DNA from: Gemmatales bacterium
Lineage (GTDB): Bacteria; Planctomycetota; Planctomycetia; Gemmatales; HRBIN36
NCBI GenBank assembly: GCA_041640595.1
Contig: JBEPZY010000003.1
Location: 116,773-180,772, forward strand
Direction: 5' to 3'
DNA length: 64,000 nt
The notes beneath the pieces were generated by a model. The model was given only the letters and a program-made list of their open reading frames with translations. It was not told where the DNA came from and did no database searches. The translations under genes were made by a program, and so were the position numbers. Of the stretch, positions 11,796-59,250 are shown piece by piece (position 1 is the stretch's first letter; each line of letters begins with the position of its first letter).

Positions 11796-11897
11796 GTTCG
11801 TCGAATTGTGATCGCCCGTCGAAGGACTCGACGTCGATGCGAAGGCAAGTGCTCGTTCTGCGGATGTTCGTGGAATCGTGCTTGCCCGTCGAAGGAC
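11796..11897. CRISPR. CRISPR-like mini-array: two 32-bp repeats, one 38-bp spacer
   Basis: GTTCGTCGAATTGTGATCGCCCGTCGAAGGAC (11796-11827) and GTTCGTGGAATCGTGCTTGCCCGTCGAAGGAC (11866-11897), 28/32 identical. Confidence 0.5.
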
Positions 11898-25185: not shown

Positions 25186-25214
25186 TTGATTTGGACGAAG
25201 CTGGATTGTACAAT
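25186..25214 (+). promoter_or_regulatory. Sigma70-type promoter of the fluoride riboswitch operon
   Basis: TTGATT-17 bp-TACAAT, ending 7 nt before the riboswitch. Confidence 0.65.
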
Positions 25215-25221
25215 CTAACGC

Positions 25222-25285
25222 GGCGATGGGGTTCGCCGTGAACCGCAGCGGTTCCCTTGCGGAACCGTTGCTGATGACCCCTACC
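25222..25285 (+). ncRNA. Fluoride riboswitch (crcB motif)
   Basis: GGCGATGGGGTTCGCC...AACCGC...GCTGATGACCCCTAC matches the consensus, including GGGGT/ACCCC pseudoknot complementarity. Confidence 0.92.
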
Positions 25286-25330
25286 TTGCTGGGTTCTCCC
25301 CGGAAGGTGGGGGTCGCATCGGCGAATGGT

Positions 25331-25399: not shown

Positions 25400-26584
25400 A
25401 TGAACGTCATCACCATCTTACGGGAGTACGGCGCAGGAGGCGGCGAAGTAGCACGCCGACTGGCTGATATTCTCGGCTGGGAATTGCTCGACCAGGCATT
25501 GCTTCACGAGGCCGCTGCTATCGAAAATCTCCCCGACGCGGAACTGGAACGCCTGGACGAAAAGGAACTGACTCTGGCGGAGCGGTTTCGTCTTCGTCCG
25601 ACGCATCAGAAATACATCCACGGGCTCACCGAGGCAGCCCGGCGAGCGGTGGCTCGAGGCAACGTGATTCTTGTCGGACGCGGTACCCGTTTCCTGGTGG
25701 GCGACTTACCCAACGCCTTTCATCTCCGGCTGGTCGCTCCGAGTGCCTGGCGTGCCGAACGGATGGCTCGATTGGAACGCTGGTCGGTGGAACAGGCGCT
25801 GGTGCGTTGCCGGGAAGTGGATCGCACGCGGGAACGTTTTACCCGCTACTTTTTCGGGCCGCACGCTCTTGAACCGGAGCAATACGACCTGATCGTCAAC
25901 ACCGGTCGCTTTCCCCTCGAGGAGGTGGTCGCCTGCGTGGTGGCGCTCGTCCGGAATGATTGGGCAACGGATGCCCGGCAAGGTTCGGTCAGTCCCCGGG
26001 TGTTGACGCTGGCTCGCCAGTTAGGGGCCGGGGACACAGGATTTGCTCCGACCCTGGCCGATCGGCTGGGACTGAAAGTGTACGACCGCGCGTTGCTGGA
26101 GCAGGCGGTCATCCAGCTGGGCGTGCGCGAGTCGGAGCTGGAAAAGATTGACGAACAACCAGCCAGCATTTTTCAGCGATTCCGGCCGGGGAGTCTCTAC
26201 CAGCGCTATTTCGAGGCCCTGAAGAACCTGATGCATGAACTGGCGCGGCAGGGCGATGTGCTGATCGTCGGGCGGGGCGGTAGTCGCTTCCTCCGCGACC
26301 ATCCTTCCGCTCTGCATGTGCGTCTGGTGGCAACGATGCCGGTGCGGATTCGGCGGGTCATGGAGCATCGCTGGCTGCGGGAAGAAGCAGCTCAACAACT
26401 CATCGCCGAAAGCGACGAACAGCGTCGCCGTTTTTATCAGGACTATTTCGGAGCCGACTGGGCCGATCCGCTGGAGTATCACCTGACAGTCAACACCGGG
26501 CGGCTGGGACCGACCGCCGTGGACCTCATCGCTTTTGCCGCCCAACGCTACTGGCAGCAACCAGGCCCGCGAACAGCGACCTGA
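25400..26584 (+). CDS. Tandem cytidylate-kinase-like (Cytidylate_kin2) double-domain protein
   Basis: Two repeats: VITILREYGAGG..VILVGRG..YDLIVNTG and VLTLARQLGAG..VLIVGRG..YHLTVNTG. Confidence 0.85.
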   Translation: MNVITILREYGAGGGEVARRLADILGWELLDQALLHEAAAIENLPDAELERLDEKELTLAERFRLRPTHQKYIHGLTEAARRAVARGNVILVGRGTRFLVGDLPNAFHLRLVAPSAWRAERMARLERWSVEQALVRCREVDRTRERFTRYFFGPHALEPEQYDLIVNTGRFPLEEVVACVVALVRNDWATDARQGSVSPRVLTLARQLGAGDTGFAPTLADRLGLKVYDRALLEQAVIQLGVRESELEKIDEQPASIFQRFRPGSLYQRYFEALKNLMHELARQGDVLIVGRGGSRFLRDHPSALHVRLVATMPVRIRRVMEHRWLREEAAQQLIAESDEQRRRFYQDYFGADWADPLEYHLTVNTGRLGPTAVDLIAFAAQRYWQQPGPRTAT

Positions 26585-26620
26585 GCTTACGAAGGAGCCG
26601 ATTGAACGAGGGGAACGGTC

Positions 26621-27919
26621 ATGGAACACGCATGGGCAACGGCTGCACTCTGGATGGGACTGGCACTACTGGCCAGCTACCTTTCCATTCGCTACAAGGT
26701 AAGCGTGGCGCTGGTGGAAATCGTTGTCGGCATCGTCGCCGGCAACCTGGCGCTGCTGCTGAATCATTACCAGGTGTTCGGCTGGCACTGGCAACTCAAG
26801 GCCAATGAGTGGATCACTTTCCTGGCAGGGTTCGGCAGCATCCTGTTGACCTTCATGGCCGGTGCGGAGATAGAGCCGGCCGTGCTGCGCAAGTTCCTGA
26901 AAGAAAGCCTGGCTATCGGCGTGGCCAGTTTTGCTGCACCGTTCTTCGGGGCCATGCTCTTTGCTCGCTGGGTCAGTGGCTGGGATTGGAACGCGGCGAT
27001 GATCTGCGGCATCGCCCTGTCCACCACATCGGTCGCCGTCGTTTATGCCGTGATGGTAGAAACCGGATTGAACGAGACCGACTTCGGCAAACTGATCCTG
27101 GCTGCCTGCTTCGTCACCGATCTGGGTACGGTGCTGGCTCTGGGCATCTGCTTCGCCAATTACGACTGGAGCCTGGTGTCGTTTGTGGCCATTACTGCCG
27201 CAGCTTTGTGGCTGGTGCCGGGGTTTGTCCGCTGGTTCTTCAGCCGCTATGCCACGCATGTCAGCGAGCCAGGGGTCAAGATGGTCTTCTTTGTGCTGTT
27301 CGGTCTGGGAGCGCTGGCGGCACTGTCCAGAAGCGAAGCTGTGCTGCCCGCTTATCTGGTAGGATTAGTCCTGGCGGGAATATTCGCTCACCAGCGCGAC
27401 ACGGTGCGTCGCCTGCGTACCACGGTGTTCGCCTTCCTGACACCGTTTTACTTCCTCAACGCCGGGATGAAAGTTTATACCCCCGCCTTGTGGACGGGTC
27501 TGGGATTAGTCATCATCCTTTTGCTGGTCAAGCTGGTGACCAAGATGATCGGTGTTTGGCCAATAACTCGCTGGTTCCGTTTCGGCGTGCGTGAAAGCAA
27601 CTACACGACGTTACTCATGTCCACCGGCCTCACCTTCGGCACCATCAGCGCCTTATTCGGTCTCAACAACGGTTACATCACCCAGGAACAGTACTCCATC
27701 CTGGTCACGGTGGTCATCGCCAGTGCCATCGTGCCGACCATGATCGCCCAGGCCTTTTTCAGACCGGATATCGAACCAGCCGTGGCAGCCACCATCTCGG
27801 CGTCGCCTCCGGTACCTGCTGGCACCGCGGCGAGCAAAATGGCAGGCACAGATGGTGCGGTGTCTTCCACCGCCCCGGCTGTCCACGCAGCGAAGCAGGG
27901 CGAAACCAAACAAGCCTAG
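26621..27919 (+). CDS. Cation:proton antiporter (CPA2/Na+/H+ exchanger family)
   Basis: Highly hydrophobic; ALSTTSVAVV, GKLILAACFVTDL motifs. Confidence 0.9.
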   Translation: MEHAWATAALWMGLALLASYLSIRYKVSVALVEIVVGIVAGNLALLLNHYQVFGWHWQLKANEWITFLAGFGSILLTFMAGAEIEPAVLRKFLKESLAIGVASFAAPFFGAMLFARWVSGWDWNAAMICGIALSTTSVAVVYAVMVETGLNETDFGKLILAACFVTDLGTVLALGICFANYDWSLVSFVAITAAALWLVPGFVRWFFSRYATHVSEPGVKMVFFVLFGLGALAALSRSEAVLPAYLVGLVLAGIFAHQRDTVRRLRTTVFAFLTPFYFLNAGMKVYTPALWTGLGLVIILLLVKLVTKMIGVWPITRWFRFGVRESNYTTLLMSTGLTFGTISALFGLNNGYITQEQYSILVTVVIASAIVPTMIAQAFFRPDIEPAVAATISASPPVPAGTAASKMAGTDGAVSSTAPAVHAAKQGETKQA

Positions 27920-27991
27920 AGTGATCACCGACGCGACCTACACCGATACCGGCGTGTATCAGCAAAAACCATCCGATACGAGGGTACGACC

Positions 27992-28411
27992 ATGTTTCAC
28001 AAGATTCTGGTAGGGATTGATGGCTCCCCGGCCAGCGAAAAAGCACTGGCTGCGGCAGTGGACCTGGCCGCGCATTATCAAGCCGACTTGATCGCCATCA
28101 GTGTCGCCGAGGTACCACAGGTCGTCGGCCTGGTGGACGAAGTGGACGAGCTGCGACAAAGTGCCGAGGCACAACTGCGCGAAATCGGCGCAGCAGCAGT
28201 CGAGTATGCTCGCAGTCGGGGTGTGGTCATGCGTTCCGTTGTTGTGCGCGGGCACGCCGCCGACGCCATCGTCCGCTATGCCGAGAGCGAAGGGGTCAAT
28301 TTGATTGTCCTGGGCCAGCACGGTCACTCGCGGATTTCTCGCTTCTTCCTGGGAAGCACCACCGATCGCGTCAGCGAACACAGCCCTTGCTCGGTGATGA
28401 TCGTCAAGTGA
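27992..28411 (+). CDS. Universal stress protein
   Basis: KILVGIDGS..LIVLGQHG..LGSTTDRV..CSVMIVK. Confidence 0.93.
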   Translation: MFHKILVGIDGSPASEKALAAAVDLAAHYQADLIAISVAEVPQVVGLVDEVDELRQSAEAQLREIGAAAVEYARSRGVVMRSVVVRGHAADAIVRYAESEGVNLIVLGQHGHSRISRFFLGSTTDRVSEHSPCSVMIVK

Positions 28412-28496
28412 GCGAAGCCGACACCTTCAGCAAAAATCAAAGCAGTACGACGATGATGTTACCGCGGACGTTTGCTCCGAACGGGGCCGTACTGAG

Positions 28497-28883
28497 ATGA
28501 TCACCTTTTTCTGCCCGAACTGCTGGAAAGAAGTGAAGGAAACGGATACGGTTTGTCCTCATTGCCTGGCGAACATTGCCGAGCTGCTGCAGCAGCGAGA
28601 CTATGTCGCCAAACTGATTGCCGCGTTGTCCCATCCGGAGCCTGGCGTTCCGATTCGTGCTGCCTGGATTCTGGGCAAACTCCGTGCCCGAACAGCGGTA
28701 CAGCCCCTGCTCGCATTACTGCAAGGGGATGCCGACCAGTTCGTGAAAGCCGCGGCTGTGGAAGCCCTCGGCCAGATCGGCGACACCACTGCCCGACCAG
28801 TTTTGTTGGAACTCGCCCAGAAAGGCCCGGTCTTGCTACGCAACAAAGCGATCGAAGCACTCCGTCTCCTGCAGGACTCGTAA
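28497..28883 (+). CDS. Zinc-ribbon plus HEAT-repeat protein
   Basis: CPNC-x10-CPHC followed by RAAWILGKL and AAVEALGQIG HEAT units. Confidence 0.8.
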   Translation: MITFFCPNCWKEVKETDTVCPHCLANIAELLQQRDYVAKLIAALSHPEPGVPIRAAWILGKLRARTAVQPLLALLQGDADQFVKAAAVEALGQIGDTTARPVLLELAQKGPVLLRNKAIEALRLLQDS

Positions 28884-28976
28884 TTTCTGCCGAGCGACAC
28901 AGCTCATACCTTGCGACGTGCAAACCACCTGGCAGAGCTCAACGCATCTCGGCTCAAACTCGGCATAAGTGATTCA

Positions 28977-29074
28977 CTGAGACGAACAACGCAGCTGAGG
29001 CGATGACGTGGCAGGGATGCTGGTACGATAGCAAGACATTTGCCTCAGACGAAAAATGTAGCTGAGGCGATGAC
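28977..29074. CRISPR. CRISPR-like mini-array E: two 31-bp repeats, one 36-bp spacer
   Basis: CTGAGACGAACAACGCAGCTGAGGCGATGAC (28977-29007) and CTCAGACGAAAAATGTAGCTGAGGCGATGAC (29044-29074), 27/31 identical. Confidence 0.5.
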
Positions 29075-29354
29075 CCTCACCGCGAAATGACGCTGATTCG
29101 TGGCAATCGCCTGGAAGATGGCCGACCAACCTGGCCAGGGCGATGAGCATGACCGCGAAGGTGATGACCAATCTTCCCGCAACACCCGCACCCTCCAGGC
29201 TATGAGCCAGGCGAGCTGCCACAGGACACTGTGAAGGTAATGAGCGACCTTCCAGCAAGACACCGAACAGCACGCGGCAAGCCGACAATTGAACACACGC
29301 CAGGGCGACGAGTAGTCTGAATTGCGCAGCAAAACTCGGCCAACACGATTGTGC

Positions 29355-29726
29355 TTGGCTTGTCCCCAGCTTTGGCAGGAGCGGGCGACTTCACGGCACC
29401 TCGCCAGACAATTCGACTGGAAAAAATCCTTTCTTCTCGCCGAGAACGCCGGCATACTAATTCAGCAGCACCTGGCCAGTTACTGGTGTATGAAAACCTC
29501 GATTTTTGGTCTGGAGGGTCGCACGTCCATATTAGCCGGCGTTCGGCCAAGGCGATCGCAGACAACTGTGCGCGTGGTGATCGGAGACTGTTTTCAAAAC
29601 CTGAGGAAGCTCAGGCGGGCCTTGCATGTTTCACGTGCCCCCGAAAAACAAACCATCCGGCGTAACCAGCATCATGCGTAAGCCTTACATCCAACGTAGC
29701 CTCCGCGAAAACTTGGGATAAGTCAG
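29355..29726. mobile_element. MITE/IS remnant, diverged copy 1
   Basis: Ends TTGGCTTGTCCCCAGCTTTGG and AAAACTTGGGATAAGTCAG; alignable by eye with 30356-30659 at both ends and in the middle. Confidence 0.7.
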
Positions 29727-29727
29727 A

Positions 29728-29871
29728 TCGTACAGACCTCGACACTGTGCGCGTTGGATGCTGCAGGGGTGCTATATTGGTCTAAGCTGCGTCTTCGTAC
29801 AAACTGTCTTCCGGTTGTTGCGCATAGTCCAGCAAGATAGGTATTGGTCTAAGCTGTGTCTTCGTACAAAC
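29728..29871. CRISPR. CRISPR-like mini-array A: 30-bp repeats, 37-bp spacers
   Basis: TATTGGTCTAAGCTG(C/T)GTCTTCGTACAAAC at 29775-29804 and 29842-29871; in-phase remnant TCGTACAGAC ending at 29737 (period 67). Confidence 0.65.
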
Positions 29872-29920
29872 CTTGATGCTATGGGCGGTAAACTTACCGC
29901 CGGTTACTCTATCGCCGGTT

Positions 29921-30034
29921 GCTCACGACCAGCCGTTAGTTGCTGAAGAACTTGCAACAAAGTACCAGCCTCTGCCGTCTTCCGTCTCAATGTAAAGGCT
30001 CACGACCAGCCGTTAGTTGCTGAAGAACTTGCAA
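29921..30034. CRISPR. CRISPR-like mini-array B: two identical 37-bp repeats, one 40-bp spacer
   Basis: GCTCACGACCAGCCGTTAGTTGCTGAAGAACTTGCAA at 29921-29957 and 29998-30034. Confidence 0.6.
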
Positions 30035-30203
30035 TCCAGGAAGCGGTTAGCCAATCGCCTGCTGCCGAGGACCTACATCCTTGGCACATTCGTCCAGCGG
30101 AAGCAGGACTCGAACATCCTGCGAATTTCCTGGGAAAATGCGAGATTGGCGATTCCGCCGCAGCAAAAAGCGCAGCACCAAACGGCGTTATCAGTCGCCC
30201 TCG

Positions 30204-30703
30204 GGCGTACTTGACCGAAGCGCGAACCGACCATTGCAGCGCTTCGCGGACGCGAGGACGGCAAGGGGACGGACGGCGGCGTACTTGACCGGACGCGAAC
30301 GGAGCCATTGCAGCCCCGCCGGGAAACTGGCAGTGTCCTGGCCTCCCCTACGCCGCTGACCTATCCCCCGTTTTGGCAGTGGTGGGCGACTTCGCAACAC
30401 AGGGCTGGACAATGGCTTACGAAAAGTCTTGTTTTTTCAGCCTCGTGCACCGGACGTTCACATCGTTGCAGCGTTCAGCTGAGCCCATTGCAGCCAACCG
30501 TGTGCTTAGCGATCTGCGCCCCATTTCCAGGCCCCAAAGCAACTCGGTCAGGTTCCCCGTGGTCCACGAGCCCTTGAAAAACAGCCCCATCGGACGTAAC
30601 GAGCATCATCCCAGGGCCTTACGTCCAGGGGAGCCCCCTCAAAACTGGGGATAGGTCAGCCCTACGGCGTACTTGACCGAAACGCAAACGGAGCCATTGC
30701 AGC
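30204..30703 (+). CRISPR. CRISPR-like array C: three 37-38 bp repeats ending CCATTGCAGC, interrupted by a MITE
   Basis: Repeats at 30204-30240, 30278-30314, 30666-30703; removing the MITE restores a 74-bp period with 37-bp spacers. Confidence 0.7.
30356..30659. mobile_element. 304-bp MITE, IS4/IS10-like ends, copy 2
   Basis: 20-bp terminal inverted repeats CTGACCTATCCCCCGTTTTG / CAAAACTGGGGATAGGTCAG (1 mismatch); 10-bp target duplication CCCTACG(C/G)CG; no transposase. Confidence 0.85.
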
Positions 30704-30958
30704 ACTGCGAGGGCCACTCTCCTTTTTCAAGCGTCTGGACGAGTATTCTTCCGATTGTCAGCCCATTGACAATTACCTGGGCACCCTCCTTCTTCTTTTT
30801 CATGCAAGCCTGGACGAGATGTGCATGAGCCATTGCTGTGCTGGAGACACCGAGCCAGAACTTGGTGTTGGGGTATAACCGCCAAAACAGCCCCCAACCG
30901 CAAGTTACGTCCGTATCACTACTTAGCACTTCGTGCCACTTAGTGTACAATCGTCCAG

Positions 30959-31030
30959 TGGGCCCGGCAGGATTCGAACCTGCAACCGACGGATTATGAG
31001 TCCGCTGCTCTGCCGTTGAGCTACGGGCCC
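30959..31030 (-). tRNA. tRNA with CAU anticodon, most likely tRNA-Ile2 (lysidine-modified); CCA not encoded
   Basis: GGGCCCG acceptor stem, GCGGA-CTCATAA-TCCGT anticodon arm, GCAGG-TTCGAAT-CCTGC T arm; C4-G69/C5-G68 pairs favour Ile2 over Met. Confidence 0.93.
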
Positions 31031-31489
31031 AAAAGCAATTTCCCAGCGACCATGCGGAATCCCCGTCAGGCTAGCCGTCGCTGCTTATGCATTATAGGAG
31101 GCCGATTCAAATCGCGGCAGGTACTACACGTTTCGCCCGAAGCAACAAGCGGACGCGTAGTTACAGCTCCTTTTCACCGGGCTGGTATTTCTGCATCGGA
31201 AGGGGTAAGCAAATCCCCGTGGTTGCCCATAAGCATTTCAGTCCGACCGTCCCGTGTCATTTTCGCTGATTCGTCTCGCGCCGTTCCTGTCGGCCAACTC
31301 GCCATAACAAACGCTCTCGTGGGCATGCTCACTGTTGTCGGTCGCAGGACGGGTATGAGATACAAAGTGCGGACCTTGCAGCGTAAACGGGACCATCGAG
31401 CGAGTGCGGTCAGCTTGGGCCGACTGTGGGAGATGAACCATTCTTCCGAGTGCGTGTCCGGCACACCGCGGAGAATATCCGAGCGACCT

Positions 31490-34220
31490 GACACAGGCGG
31501 GCTGACGGTCGCTACTCTTGTTCGTCTGTTGCATGGTCGCCGAATAGTGCGCGGTTTTCGCCGGACAGCGTGCGGTTCACCGAGCCACGGCGGGCTGACG
31601 GTCGCCGCTCCTGGTGGCCGCGCGAAGATTCTCCGAACTGTGCCACGTCGCCGTTGCAAGTGCGTTTCCTGAACCCACGGGGGGCTTACGCCCCCCGCTC
31701 TTGTGTAGCAGTCGATCGCCGCGGGTGTGTGGGCGATTGCGGCTGCCGATGCGGTTCTGAGCCACGGCGGGCTGACGGTCGCCGCTCTTGGTGCCCGCGC
31801 GAAGATTCTCCGAACTGTGCCACGTCGCCGTTGCAAGTGCGGTTCCCGAACCCACGGGGGGCTGACGCCCGCCGCTCTTGTTTGGGCTGACGGTCGCCGC
31901 TCCTGTGAACATGCGTTTGTGCATCGCGGATGGGGCTATTCTCCGGCCGGGCGTAGCGTCGTGCGCCAAGAGCGGTCGGCGTGAGCCAACCGTCGGAAAC
32001 TTTCACGCTCGCACCGGCGTTGGTTAAACCACGGGGGGCTTACGCCCGCCAGCAGCCATCCGGCAACCTTTGCCACTAGCTGTAAGTGCGGTTCCTGAAC
32101 CCACGGGGGGCTTACGCTCGCCAGCAGCCATCCGGCAACCTTCGCCACTAGTCGCAAGTGCGTTTTCCGAACCCACACTTGGTTGCTCAGTCGGTCGGGT
32201 GTGTGAGCGATTGCGGCTGCCGATGCGGTTCTGAGCCACGGCGGGCTGACGCCCGCCGCTCCTGGTGCCCGCGCGAAGATTCTCCGAACTGTGCCACGTC
32301 GCCGTTGCAAGTGCTTTTCCCGAACCCACGGGGGGCTTACGCCCCCCGCTCTTGTTTGGGCTGACGCCCGCCGCTCTTGTGAATGGTCGTTTGTGCATCG
32401 CAGATGGCGCTATTCTCCGGCCGGGCGTAGCGTCGTGCGCCAAGAGCAGTCGGCGTGAGCCGACCGTCGGAAACGTTCACGCTCGCACCGGCGTTGGTTA
32501 AACCCCGGGGGGCTTACGCTCGCCAGCAGCCATCCGGCAACCTTCGCCACTAGTTGGAAGTGCGGTTCCTGAACCCACGGGGGCTGACGCCCGCCGCTCT
32601 TGTGTAGCAGTCGATCGTCGCGGGTGTGTGGGCGAATGCGGCTGCCGATGCGGTTCCGACCCACGGCGGGCTGACGGTCGCCGCTCTTGGTGCGTGTGCG
32701 ACTCCGGATTGGAAGACACGACTTCCCGGCGAACGAACGTCGTGCACCAGGAGCGGCTGGCGTAAGCCAGCCGTGGTTCCCCAAACGCAACTGCATAGCA
32801 TTCACGGTACACTACGGAGACCCGTGCACCTACCAACCCACGGCGGGCTGAGGGTCGCCGCTCCTGGTGGCCGCGCGAAGATTCTCCGAACTGTGCCACG
32901 TCGCCGTTGCAAGTGCGTTTCCTGAACTCACGGGGGGCTTACGCCCCCCGCTCTTGTCTAGCAGTCGGTCGTCGCGGGTATGTGGGCGATTGCGGTTGCC
33001 GATGCGGTTCTGACCCACGGCGGGCTGACGGTCGCTACTCTTGTTCGTCCGTTGCAAGGTCGCCGAATAGTGCGCGGTTTTCGCCGGGCAGCGTGCGGTT
33101 TACCGAACCACGGCGGGCTGACGGTCGCCGCTCCTGTGAACGTGCGTTCGGATCTCGGAAAAACCGTCATTTCCTCGGCGATCGAACACGGTGCAACCAG
33201 GAGCGGCTGGCGTAAGCCAGCCGTGGTTCCCGAAACGCAACTGCATAGCATTCACGGTACACTACAGAGAACCCTCCACCTACCAACCCACGGAGGGCTT
33301 ACGCTCGCCAGAAGCCATCCGGCAACCTTCGCCACTGGCTGTAAGTGCGTTTCCCGAAACCACGGGGGGCTTACGCCCCCCGCTCTTGTCTAGCCAGTCG
33401 GTCGTTGCGGGTGTGTGGGCTATTGCGGTTCCCGATGCGGTTCTGAGCCACGACGGGCTGACGGTCACCGCCTTGTTCGTCCGTTGCAGGGTCGCCGAAT
33501 AGTGCGCGGTTTTCTCCGGACAGCGTGCGGTTCACCGAACCACGGCGGGCTGACGCCCGCCGCTCTTGGTGCCCGCGCGAAGATTCTCCGAACTGTGCCA
33601 CGTCGCCGTTGCAAGTGCGGTTCCTGAACCCACGGGGGGCTTACGTCCCCCGCTCTTGTGTAGCAGTCGAACGCCGCGGGGGTGTGGGCGATTGCGGTTG
33701 CCGATGCGGTTGTGAGCTACGGGTGGCTTACGCCCCCCGCCCTAGTTTGGACTGACGCCCGCCGCTCTTGGTACGGGTTCGACCCCGCATTGTAAGAAAT
33801 GATTTCCCGGCGAACGAGCGTCGTGCAGCAGGAGCGGCTGGCGTAAGCCAGCCGTGGTTCCCGAAACGCAACTGCAAGTGATTTACGGCACGCCATGCAG
33901 AACGTTCTACCGATCGAACCCACGGCGGGCTGACGCACGCCAGCAGCCATCCGGCAACCTTCGCCGCTAGCTGTAAGTGCGCTTCCTGAACCCACGGGGG
34001 GCTTACGCCCCCCGCTCTTGTTTGGGCTGACGGTCGTCGCGGGTATGTGGGCGATTGCGGTTGCCGATGCGGTTCTGAGCCACGGCGGGCTGACGCCCGC
34101 CGCTCTTGTTTAAGCTGACGGTCGTCGCTCCTGGTAATGACGTTCTACGCTCTCGAGGAAGTCGTCTCCTGTTGCAAGGCGTCGCTGAAACACGCATGCC
34201 CGGCTGAGGGTCGCCGCTGT
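31490..34220. repeat. REP/BIME-like mosaic repeat cluster (roughly 35-40 hairpin cores)
   Basis: Core CCACGGCGGGCTGACG(G/C)(T/C)CGCCGCTC and CCACGGGGGGCTTACGCCCCCCGCTC repeated, inverted copies near 31967, 32441, 32748, 33198, 33828, with a small set of recurring linkers. Confidence 0.88.
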
Positions 34221-34320
34221 TGGTAACGATGATCGTCGCTCGTGGCAATGGTGCTCGCCGCTTCCGGTTGTGTGGGCGGATGGCGTCGCGGGTGCGCGTT
34301 TTCGATTTGCGGGGACGCGC

Positions 34321-34933
34321 GGTTTTGCAAGGTGGGTTCATGCGCTGGCACTGCGCATTGTCGCCCAGCACACCGCCAGGACACTAGGTTTTGCAAGGTG
34401 GGTTCATGCGCTGGCACTGCGTATCGTCGCCCAGCACACCGCCAGGGCGCCAGGTTTTGCACGGTGGGTTCATGCGCTGGCACTGCGTATCGTCGCCCAG
34501 CACACCGCCAGGGCGCCAGGGTTTGCACAGCGGGTTCATGCGCCGGTATCGCGTATCGTCGCACAGCACACCGCCAGGGCGCCGGGTTTTGGACGGTGGG
34601 TTCATGCGGTGGCACTGCGTATCGTCGCCCAGCACACCGCCAGGGCGCCAGGTTTTGCACGGCGGGTTCATGCGCCGGTATCGCGTATCGTCGCACTGCA
34701 CACCGCCAGGGCGCCAGGGTTTGCACAGCGGGTTCATGCGCTGGCATCGCGTATCGTCGCCCAGCACACCGCCAGGGCGCCAGGGTTTGCACAGCGGGTT
34801 CATGCGCCGGTATCGCGTATCGTCGCACTGCACACCGTCGGGGCGCCAGGTTTTGCACGGCGGGTTTATGCGCTGGCACTGCGCATTGTCGCACAGCACA
34901 CCGCCAGGGCGCCAGGTTTTGCACGGCGGGTTA
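34321..34933. repeat. 66-bp tandem repeat, nine full copies plus a partial
   Basis: Unit GGTTTTGCACGGTGGGTTCATGCGCTGGCACTGCGTATCGTCGCCCAGCACACCGCCAGGGCGCCA starting at 34321, 34387, 34453 ... 34915. Confidence 0.95.
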
Positions 34934-44276: not shown

Positions 44277-44390
44277 GTAGCAGCTTTGGGAGCAATTCCA
44301 GAACTGCAAAACCACGCTCAAGGCCGTTTGGACGTCTTGGCACCAGGTACGGGCGTAGCAGCTTTGGGAGCAATTCCAGAACTGCAAAAC
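44277..44390. CRISPR. CRISPR-like mini-array D: two identical 36-bp repeats, 42-bp spacer
   Basis: GTAGCAGCTTTGGGAGCAATTCCAGAACTGCAAAAC at 44277-44312 and 44355-44390; palindromic; partial third copy AACTGCAAAAC ends at 44246. Confidence 0.72.
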
Positions 44391-44785
44391 CGCTCCGGCG
44401 CGGGCATCCAGGTGGGCCTGGGGTTCACGGCGGGACCCAGGTAAGCGAATGCCCCTAATGACACCGCCGATTTCTGCGGGCACAGAGGGCGTTGATGAAT
44501 CGAGGTTACGAACATCTGGCCGAGACGGGGTCCGACACCTGGCAACCGAGGATAATCCCAGCCGCCGCTTGTTACACTGGTGCAGGAATGGCGACAGCGG
44601 GTGTGCGTGCGTTGTTCCTGCCGCAGAACCTGACCCTACCGGTTCCGTTGCAGGAATGGCCGCCATTTTGAAAGCTGCGGCTCGAATCGTCGGGTCGGAG
44701 GTTAAGGCTGAGCCGGCGACAGTTGCGGTACTGGCAGCAGGACTTTGGACAGTTGCGGATGGGTCGGAAGCTATCGCGGAGGCGA

Positions 44786-46363: not shown

Positions 46364-46862
46364 CCGTGAAAAGAGGGCAACAGACCGGAACCACTTCCTG
46401 GCCGGTCACCTCGACTACCTCCCGAGCGGCTGGGTGCTAGGGAAGGACGATTGTAACCAAACCGGGTGAGTCTGGCCAAGAGAAAAATTTTCGTGCCAAT
46501 CTTCGCCCACAGGGTCGGTTGACCGAAGTTGCCGATTGGGGAAGTTTTGTTTCCCGGTATCAACAAAGAAAATTCACAAAAAATTTTCCAACCGGCCAAC
46601 CGCAGCTGTTAGCGTAGCGGCGAAGTTTGCAGCTGAAATCTGCGTAGCGCTCTCGCTTGTCGCCGCAACTCTTTTCGGATATGGCGATTATGGATTGCCA
46701 GCCGATTGGCGGATTCCAGCTGTCAATTCACCATCTCTTCCGGACATCCCCGCTGACACCCAACCCTGCTGCGGGCGATTTTGTGTAGTAAGCCGTGCGG
46801 GCCAGGCGTAGCAAGTTCCCCTTGCGGAAAGCAAGCCCGTTGGTTACACATGCTTGCTCCAG

Positions 46863-46958
46863 GGACGGCAGCCGAAGGTGAAACAGGCACGCGACAAGAC
46901 AAGCGGAGCAAAGACAAGCGTCCTGAAGAAGGACGGCCGCCGAAGGTGAAACAGGCAC
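46863..46958. repeat. 28-bp direct repeat pair with 40-bp spacer
   Basis: GGACGGC(A/C)GCCGAAGGTGAAACAGGCAC at 46863-46890 and 46931-46958. Confidence 0.7.
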
Positions 46959-59154: not shown

Positions 59155-59250
59155 CTCGGTTCCGGACAATGCGAACCGAGCACTCGGTATGCTGGCTGCC
59201 AGCGCGTGTCAGTCCGTCTCGTTTCCGCACAATGCGAACCAAGCACCCGG
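59155..59250. repeat. 33-bp direct repeat pair with 30-bp spacer
   Basis: CTCGGTTCCGGACAATGCGAACCGAGCACTCGG (59155-59187) and CTCGTTTCCGCACAATGCGAACCAAGCACCCGG (59218-59250). Confidence 0.6.

Follow-up and report, generated by a model that had tools for sequence, protein, structure and literature searches.

Four mini-arrays in a hot-spring planctomycete genome as probable products of off-target CRISPR spacer integration

The genome of a Gemmatales bacterium, a planctomycete from hot springs, was examined through one stretch of 64,000 nucleotides (nt), here called the window (C3:116773-180772 in an assembly of 4.45 Mb and 42 contigs, cited by contig number). Between position 28884 of the window and a tRNA-Met(CAT) gene lie four sets of short direct repeats, here termed mini-arrays E, A, B and C. 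We consider it probable, at roughly 85%, that these are off-target products of Cas1-Cas2 spacer integration ("neo-CRISPR" units) made by the two adaptation modules of the genome's own CRISPR systems. The genome most likely carries about 300 such scars, which survive in its non-coding DNA. What the data show is the geometry of the units, the uniqueness of their repeats, precise insertion with duplication at loci elsewhere in the genome, a preference at the repeat borders, where some of the inserts came from, and covariation with the Cas1 content of one relative.

Mini-array E (28977-29074) consists of two 31-nt neo-repeats (28977-29007 and 29044-29074; 27/31 identical) around a 36-nt insert (29008-29043), giving a period of 67; a third, degenerate copy was sought and none scored above the shuffled control, leaving two copies only. 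Mini-array A (29775-29871) has the same period, with neo-repeats of 30 nt (29775-29804 and 29842-29871; 29/30) and an insert of 37 nt (29805-29841). The 37-nt neo-repeats of mini-array B (29921-30034) lie at 29921-29957 and 29998-30034, on either side of a 40-nt insert (29958-29997), at a period of 77. They are identical, which marks B as the youngest of the four units. Mini-array C (30204-30703) contains three neo-repeats of 37-38 nt, placed by pairwise alignments at 30204-30240, 30278-30314 and 30666-30703, with the second and third forming the most similar pair. Its first insert is 37 nt long (30241-30277), and its second (30315-30354 plus 30661-30665) is split by MITE2, one of two miniature inverted-repeat transposable elements (MITEs) in the segment. 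The four arrays, both MITEs and the tRNA(CAU) gene are all present where the initial annotation had placed them.

By our arithmetic, about 0.06 exact 16-mer pairs 45-100 nt apart would be expected per 4.4 Mb, and chance is therefore ruled out as the source of the direct repeats. The earlier view that the segment holds no credible gene was also borne out. Our codon-usage gene finder scored 28884-35141 as non-coding, none of the 14 open reading frames (ORFs) of at least 60 amino acids (aa) in 28974-30950, those of MITE1 included, matched Pfam at E<=0.01, and Rfam at E<=1 returned over the segment the tRNA alone, plus two sub-threshold matches overlapping it. The gene finder, which is crude, and the filters, census and statistics described below are our own scripts. 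Contigs from RNA libraries cover the segment; being contigs alone, they give no measure of transcription.

The genome contains two Cas1 genes above the family cut-off, each beside a different kind of array. System 1 (C1) has a reverse transcriptase (RT) and a 342-aa Cas1 directly before an array of 247 repeats, with a 37-nt repeat unit, CTCGCAACTTAGACCCCAACCAATAGGGGATTGAAAC, and spacers of 33-40 nt (mode 37). The RT matches Pfam RVT_1, and its nearest NCBIfam model is the group II intron RT, at a score below the cut-off of that model. System 2 (C8, continuing on C10) comprises Cas1 (type I-B model, 425 bits), Cas4, Cas3, Cas5, Cas7 and a type III-B set of Cmr1-6, numbered by our own reading of the family matches; its 30-nt repeat, GTTTCAATCCCACCGTGGTTCGATTAGTAC, occurs in 317+27 copies with spacers of 35-40 nt (mode 36). 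E and A share the 30+36/37 geometry of this type I-B/III-B array, and B and C share the 37+37 geometry of the RT-Cas1 array. The duplicated lengths are 31 nt (E) and 30 nt (A) against a resident repeat of 30 nt, and 37 nt (B) and 37-38 nt (C) against one of 37 nt. Insert lengths of 36, 37, 40 and 37 nt (E, A, B and C) compare with canonical spacer ranges of 35-40 and 33-40 nt.

A single mechanism could account for both geometries. In normal adaptation, Cas1-Cas2 makes two staggered attacks bordering the leader-proximal repeat, 30 or 37 bp apart, where a 36-37-nt prespacer is joined, and gap repair then duplicates the repeat. Were ordinary DNA taken as the target instead, the 30 or 37 bp between the attack points would be duplicated around the insert. 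The outcome would be a repeat-spacer-repeat unit whose repeat is an arbitrary piece of local sequence. Under this model E and A would come from the type I-B-type module (Cas1b, Cas4; 30-nt repeat) and B and C from the RT-associated Cas1 module (37-nt repeat), with C struck twice. Insertions in genes would be purged, while those in long non-coding tracts would persist, diverge and later be cut by MITEs. We infer the identity of the enzymes, as well as the neutrality of the units and their absence of function.

Similar units were sought across the genome as exact 14-mers recurring 40-130 nt downstream, with the canonical arrays excluded. The 805 pairs obtained were concentrated at three ranges of distance (65-68, 72-76 and 88-93 nt), and a further spike stood at 126. 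We retained the 396 pairs that measured 20-48 nt and lay 60-96 nt apart, and grouping by sequence placed them in 209 clusters, 194 of them singletons. One cluster of 161 pairs is a G+C-rich hairpin repeat that accounts for the 88-93 peak, and one cluster of 11 is of low complexity. The remaining 224 pairs, in clusters of at most three, fall mostly into two classes, with 92 at 65-68 nt, 93 at 72-76 nt and 39 spread across the other 28 distance bins. The duplicated length is most often 30-31 nt among pairs of the first class, and 36-37 nt among those of the second. In repeat length and in repeat-plus-spacer length the two classes coincide exactly with systems 2 and 1, respectively.

A more sensitive census (at least 24/28 matches at a distance of 45-110, followed by filtering) gave about 322 loci, of which 298 have two copies, 19 three, four have four and one has six; 140 belong to the 30-nt class and 182 to the 37-nt class. 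The total is approximate, as array C was missed (its copies differ by insertions and deletions) and a piece of a 66-nt tandem repeat at 34466 was counted. With 79.5% of the genome scored as coding, 283 of 353 pairs lie wholly in non-coding DNA and 34 partly so. Non-coding intervals of at least 500 nt contain about 0.4 mini-loci per kb. The 6.3-kb interval that holds E to C has four detected loci, and others are denser, for example seven in 1.5 kb at C5:155299-156786. The suggestion that the segment is a hotspot thus gave way to a genome-wide distribution.

The repeats of these units are not copies of the canonical ones. Neo-repeats of exact canonical length matched the canonical repeat at a mean of 10.0/30 positions against 8.3 for random genomic k-mers, and at 12.95/37 against 10.7; this signal is too weak for orienting the units and was not used to do so. 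Against either canonical repeat, in either orientation, those of the four mini-arrays score 6.5-18 matches. The exception is an orphan pair at C3:328836 (26/30), which is considered below with the spacers.

Direct evidence for insertion with duplication was obtained from paralogous sequences. The insert and second repeat copy of each unit were deleted in silico and the resulting model was sought in the genome. Partners spanning both junctions were found for 44 models, many of them tandem or family repeats. Nine were aligned, and in six of these, which include both classes, the paralogue is continuous save for one gap of exactly one period. These empty sites are C10:64665 (period 65) against C1:12266-12456; C3:417921 (period 75) against C8:38203-38400, 97% identical; C1:321599 (period 67) against C3:419065-419238; C1:321766 (period 66) against C3:419281-419413; C3:419213 (period 73) against C2:80253-80446; and C2:462500 (period 67) against C4:332529-332705. 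None of the remaining three alignments was clean: at C2:227641 and C2:26367 the match ran on across the insert, and for C1:329453 the partner is itself the beginning of an array. Several of the empty-site loci lie just beyond the end of a repeated gene, whose product ends in a motif that by eye resembles a transposase. Different copies of this repeated sequence bear different insertions at different points, as expected of independent events.

The borders of the neo-repeats are not random. Read inward, the first base is G in 56% of ends in the 30-nt class, and G or C in 82% in the 37-nt class. The dinucleotide GT stands at 29/124 ends of the 30-nt class, compared with 6.1% of random non-coding 30-mers (p=3e-10), and at 14/92 ends of the 37-nt class, compared with 6.2% in the control (p=1.5e-3). 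The canonical 30-nt repeat starts with GT on both strands, and the 37-nt repeat has CT and GT starts. The repeat of array A ends in AC, that is, in a GT end on the opposite strand, and so does that of array E.

To place the inserts, 293 of them were compared with the genome; most matches proved to be paralogous copies of the locus or tandem repeats. The canonical spacers that match contig C15 (L015; 9585 nt, about 50% G+C) number 30, of which the 30-nt array holds 29 and the 37-nt array one. Of these, 28 lie in the cas-proximal part of the 30-nt array (ordinals 262-315 of about 316), which argues that system 2 acquired spacers against a co-occurring element. The eight largest ORFs of C15 gave no match in PHROGs; the contig is probably a virus or plasmid of this organism, of no recognised kind. 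Inserts matching C15 were found at C2:407730, at its paralogue C3:561456 and in the orphan pair (insert at C3:328866). The insert at C2:174418 (36 nt) matches a canonical system-2 spacer at 30/31 aligned nt (97%). Three further inserts match chromosomal sequence elsewhere, namely C3:643300 (33/33 aligned nt), C3:484615 (33/34) and C2:136265 (34/36). The self match of C3:484615 is also conserved in a relative of the same genus (G001, below), and close to the site on C5 that it matches lies the weaker match of insert C3:554067 (C5:168063-168089; 27 nt at 93%). In composition the inserts (G+C 0.549 and 0.570) equal the canonical spacers (0.551 and 0.570) and lie below the adjoining 120 nt (0.587 and 0.590; paired t, p=3e-4 and 0.013). 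For the inserts of the four mini-arrays themselves, the genome offered no match outside their own loci, and the 27-nt core of the B insert, the one insert tried there, had no exact match in viral_contigs.

Some observations on the canonical systems were made alongside. At the start of the 37-nt array (C1:359749-360500) adjacent spacers overlap, with two sharing a 21-nt stretch and three others tiling one target, which suggests that the RT-associated module took spacers from one short region more than once. The pair at C3:328836-328932 is a true orphan, with near-canonical system-2 repeats and a single spacer matching C15, and C3:427281 holds a solitary repeat-like site. Six 36-nt repeats with a period of 74 stand at C8:39397-39766, about 1.4 kb beyond the system-2 cas genes; their inserts recur every second unit, indicating tandem duplication of a two-unit block.

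Comparison with one relative links the class of unit to the type of Cas1. Cas1 was found in 13 of 21 genomes searched, including the present genome (G000). G001, of the same genus, is 87% complete and about 72% identical to G000 in alignable DNA; the only Cas1 found in it is of the system-1 type, beside a 37-nt repeat array, and a search of this genome for the system-2 repeat did not find it. In 669 kb sampled from G001 there were 31 non-canonical pairs, 26 at 69-78 nt, with duplicated lengths mostly of 34-38 nt, and none at 64-68 nt. At the 140:182 ratio of G000, the probability that none of 26 would fall in the shorter class is about 4e-7 by our arithmetic, for events that are not strictly independent. 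Two genomes served as method controls: G004 yielded one pair in 396 kb sampled, and in the 364 kb of G002 only its own canonical array fell in these distance classes.

Several observations weigh against this interpretation. For the four mini-arrays themselves, neither 40 relatives nor one diverged strain supplied an empty site, so the case for these four rests on their membership of the class. Forty relatives compared with window 27900-31100 have only the tRNA in common with it and supplied no orthologous empty site. A metagenome search with the neighbouring HEAT/zinc-ribbon protein recovered one identical locus, one strain at 97.9% (L057) and otherwise sequences at most 51% identical. Strain L057, which is 97.9% identical over 26138-30056 with only four gaps, already has E, A and the start of B; array E is free of gaps in contigs of related strains from other runs, and no one-period insertion or deletion occurs among the rows listed for contigs of four runs. 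Most pairs differ at 1-5 positions, making most events old. The 40-nt insert of B lies at the upper edge of the canonical spacer range (1/246 spacers). Thirty-six pairs are wholly coding, and some census loci are false, such as the 66-nt tandem repeat at 34466 and protein repeats. In 49% of the 30-nt class a C stands three bases outside the neo-repeat, a feature without counterpart in the canonical spacers. Finally, two members of the same genus are nearly free of such pairs despite having Cas1: G002 (system-1-type Cas1 and array) has none in 364 kb and G003 (both Cas1 types) has two in 376 kb. The systems alone are therefore insufficient for the excess, and CRISPR systems appear to be necessary though insufficient.

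The best-placed alternative is that the units are copying errors of the kind produced by replication slippage or found in minisatellites, with a fixed step specific to this lineage. It would fit units that are non-coding and decaying, and some census loci are real tandem repeats, such as that at window 34321-34932. Nevertheless, the duplication takes in no more than 30 or 37 nt of a step of 66 or 74 nt (30-37 of 67-77 in E to C), and the remainder is unrelated inserted DNA that is absent from the empty paralogues, beyond what slippage creates. Slippage would also leave it to coincidence that both step sizes and duplicated lengths equal those of two CRISPR systems, that some inserts match a canonical spacer or a contig targeted by canonical spacers, and that one relative has only the step size of its single Cas1 type. 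We consider this explanation very improbable.

A second alternative, close to what the initial annotation had proposed, is that the units are functional mini-CRISPR arrays, possibly delivered by a mobile element that entered at the tRNA, and provide host Cas effectors of more than one subtype with guides. The CRISPR-like geometry and the involvement of two systems do stand, virus-borne mini-arrays are reported (PMC6858448), and the orphan pair at C3:328836 with its near-canonical repeats and C15-matching spacer shows one true case in this genome. On the other hand, the four mini-arrays have repeats that are unrelated both to the canonical repeats and to Rfam families, which makes guide processing unlikely and leaves the use of these units as guides unsupported. 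Around 200 loci each have a repeat of their own, and in paralogues the "repeat" pre-exists in single copy as ordinary DNA. Thus by sequence the repeats resemble no Cas-associated repeat, while geometry still ties the units to Cas1-Cas2.

The tRNA component of this proposal fared no better. Mini-loci within 1 kb of a tRNA gene number 13/322, against 5.3% of control positions, and are not enriched, which speaks against the tRNA 3' end as the integration site. None of the flanking genes examined was seen to encode an integrase, and the nearby contig showed no repeat of this tRNA-Met 3' end such as an attachment (att)-like duplication would provide; other copies of the tRNA-flank sequence are the trailers of different tRNAs on other contigs. 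Together with the lack of Pfam matches in the segment, these results also leave the idea of a relic of an integrated element unsupported. Functional mini-arrays are, in our estimate, a shade less probable than slippage.

Least probable of all is that the units are decayed remnants of genuine arrays, or of arrays with differing repeats that arrived in large numbers by horizontal transfer. Prokaryotes commonly have orphan arrays, and the copies here have diverged, but around 200 repeat families would be needed, each reduced to two copies and all at the lengths of the resident systems, and the empty paralogous sites mark the "repeat" as host DNA.

A bolder extension of the off-target integration model, which we regard as unlikely though clearly better placed than the alternatives above, is that this lineage is a natural nursery of new arrays, in which two promiscuous modules seed hundreds of neo-repeats, some of which are struck again and a few of which are perhaps transcribed and become guides or regulators. 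In the census 24 loci have three to six repeats, and array C also has three. If this were true, arrays would be seen being born from ordinary DNA. In a similarly speculative variant, a fidelity factor that confines integration to the leader would have been lost or weakened in G000 and G001 and not in G002 and G003.

Off-target integration that forms "neo-CRISPR" loci was described in E. coli over-producing Cas1-Cas2 (Nivala et al. 2018, as available through bioRxiv 10.1101/148544, PMC7054753, PMC6698737 and PMC9456107), and the evidence in two other species is circumstantial according to the preprint that cites it (bioRxiv 10.1101/148544). As these citing texts describe them, the E. coli loci share with the present units a spacer-sized insert flanked by duplicated, repeat-length ordinary DNA, and a neo-locus can be struck again. 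Unlike the E. coli loci, the units described here represent about 300 natural, fixed events, mostly old and mostly in non-coding DNA, and they involve a pair of adaptation modules within a single genome, one of type I-B with Cas4 and the other RT-associated. In vitro, Cas1-Cas2 of Pyrococcus furiosus used paired non-CRISPR integration sites 30 bp apart and preferred G, then C, at the attacked nucleotide, with G1 and T2 enriched (PMC6698737). The G/GT border signature of the neo-repeats is the same as this one; the P. furiosus products are half-site and full-site integrations into plasmid, whereas those here are fixed chromosomal insertions.

The units can also be compared with other small repeat structures. 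Like the mini-arrays and solitary repeat units of viruses and mobile genetic elements (PMC6858448 is one example), they have one or two spacers and two or three repeats and lie away from cas genes; those of viruses and mobile elements carry the canonical repeat of the host, usable by host Cas proteins, whereas each locus here has its own unrelated repeat.

Cas1 is related to the integrases of casposons. Transposons and casposons likewise duplicate their target site around an insert through staggered cuts followed by gap repair. However, the duplication here is of 30 or 37 bp, the insert is only 36-40 bp long and always of different sequence, and terminal inverted repeats are lacking. As far as our literature searches reach, the kind of event is already known, and its scale and setting are new. 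Among the matches listed on off-target or non-CRISPR integration in the open literature, to which the search was confined (subscription papers being outside its scope), none describes a natural genome with many such loci, and nothing relevant was among the matches listed on CRISPR mini-arrays of hot-spring Planctomycetes.

The MITEs and the tRNA flank allow the history of the tract to be read in part. MITE1 (about 29352-29731) is a diverged member of a family of non-coding mobile elements of about 300-380 nt, with matches on C12, C9, C2, C3, C4 and C1 at 72-84% identity. MITE2 (30355-30660), within the second insert of array C, has terminal inverted repeats of 21 nt that are 95% complementary and near full-length copies at C8:175559-175863, C12:1706-1997, C9:102804-103107 and C3:409154-409459. 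The two belong to one family, with about 14 further matches in the genome at 70-80% identity; no clean target-site duplication was found on alignment.

The tRNA-Met gene (anticodon CAT; 30958-31030, minus strand) is followed directly at its 3' side by the proximal piece of a tRNA-trailer module (30878-30957, minus strand), a piece common to three tRNA-Val genes and one tRNA-Ile gene. The distal piece lies at 30159-30193 (minus strand). The two pieces are 15-19 nt apart in paralogous copies, and in the window they are parted by 684 nt that contain array C and MITE2, from which it follows that the tract grew by successive insertions. As far as the order can be read, the trailer module was there first, array C was built up next, and MITE2 entered the second insert of C after that. 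A joint from 30193 to 30877 (skipping 683) in runs X3 and X5 was considered as a strain variant and rejected, as its sides measure only 28 and 23 nt and it fits paralogous trailer copies.

The trailer module itself, of about 115-150 nt and 82-94% identical between copies, begins right at the CCA end of five tRNA genes. Its other copies in this genome are at C2:26160-26290, C5:76391-76521, C9:74850-74980 and C9:103234-103312, with a relic at C4:216758-216902, and MITE copies lie close to several of the tRNA genes that bear it. Possible roles for the trailer are those of a co-transcribed RNA and of a signal for processing or termination.

Elsewhere in the window, further units of the same kind are present at 44277-44391 (identical 37-nt copies around a 41-nt insert), 46861-46958 (30 nt, period 68), 11796-11897 (32 nt, period 70) and 59155-59250 (a 33-nt pair, period 63). 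Upstream of the mini-arrays, a fluoride riboswitch (25213-25290) is followed in order by genes for a cytidylate-kinase-like protein, a Na+/H+ exchanger, a universal stress protein and the zinc-ribbon/HEAT protein, which ends at 28883. Beyond the tRNA, a G+C-rich hairpin unit of 33 nt (consensus about ACCCACGGCGGGCTGACGCCCGCCGCTCTTG) occurs 18 times within 31490-34224 at a spacing of about 87-93 nt, and the segments between these units fall into a few repeat families; the hairpin family resembles an element of the repetitive extragenic palindrome or bacterial interspersed mosaic element (REP/BIME) type, or a composite repeat. It is followed at 34321-34932, just upstream of an aldehyde ferredoxin oxidoreductase gene (35142), by the 66-nt tandem repeat (9.3 copies, 89% matches). 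Here the whole period is repeated, which identifies a true tandem repeat and no mini-array, despite a period equal to that of system 2. The metagenome runs that contain the window are labelled hot-spring and microbial-mat.

Off-target spacer integration is accepted as a hidden cost of CRISPR adaptation, and it has been proposed as a source from which new arrays arise. The error has so far been known mainly from the laboratory, and in the literature reached the evidence for it outside over-expression is thin; the roughly 300 scars described here would be a natural record of it. For practical annotation, programs that find arrays may list such units as many tiny arrays with different repeats. 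The genome would map which off-target sites a type I-B and an RT-associated module prefer in nature, and it would measure how selection filters insertions, about 80% of which lie within 20% of the genome. Moreover, the contrast within the genus, with G000 and G001 rich in such units and G002 and G003 poor, could point to a factor that governs the fidelity of integration.

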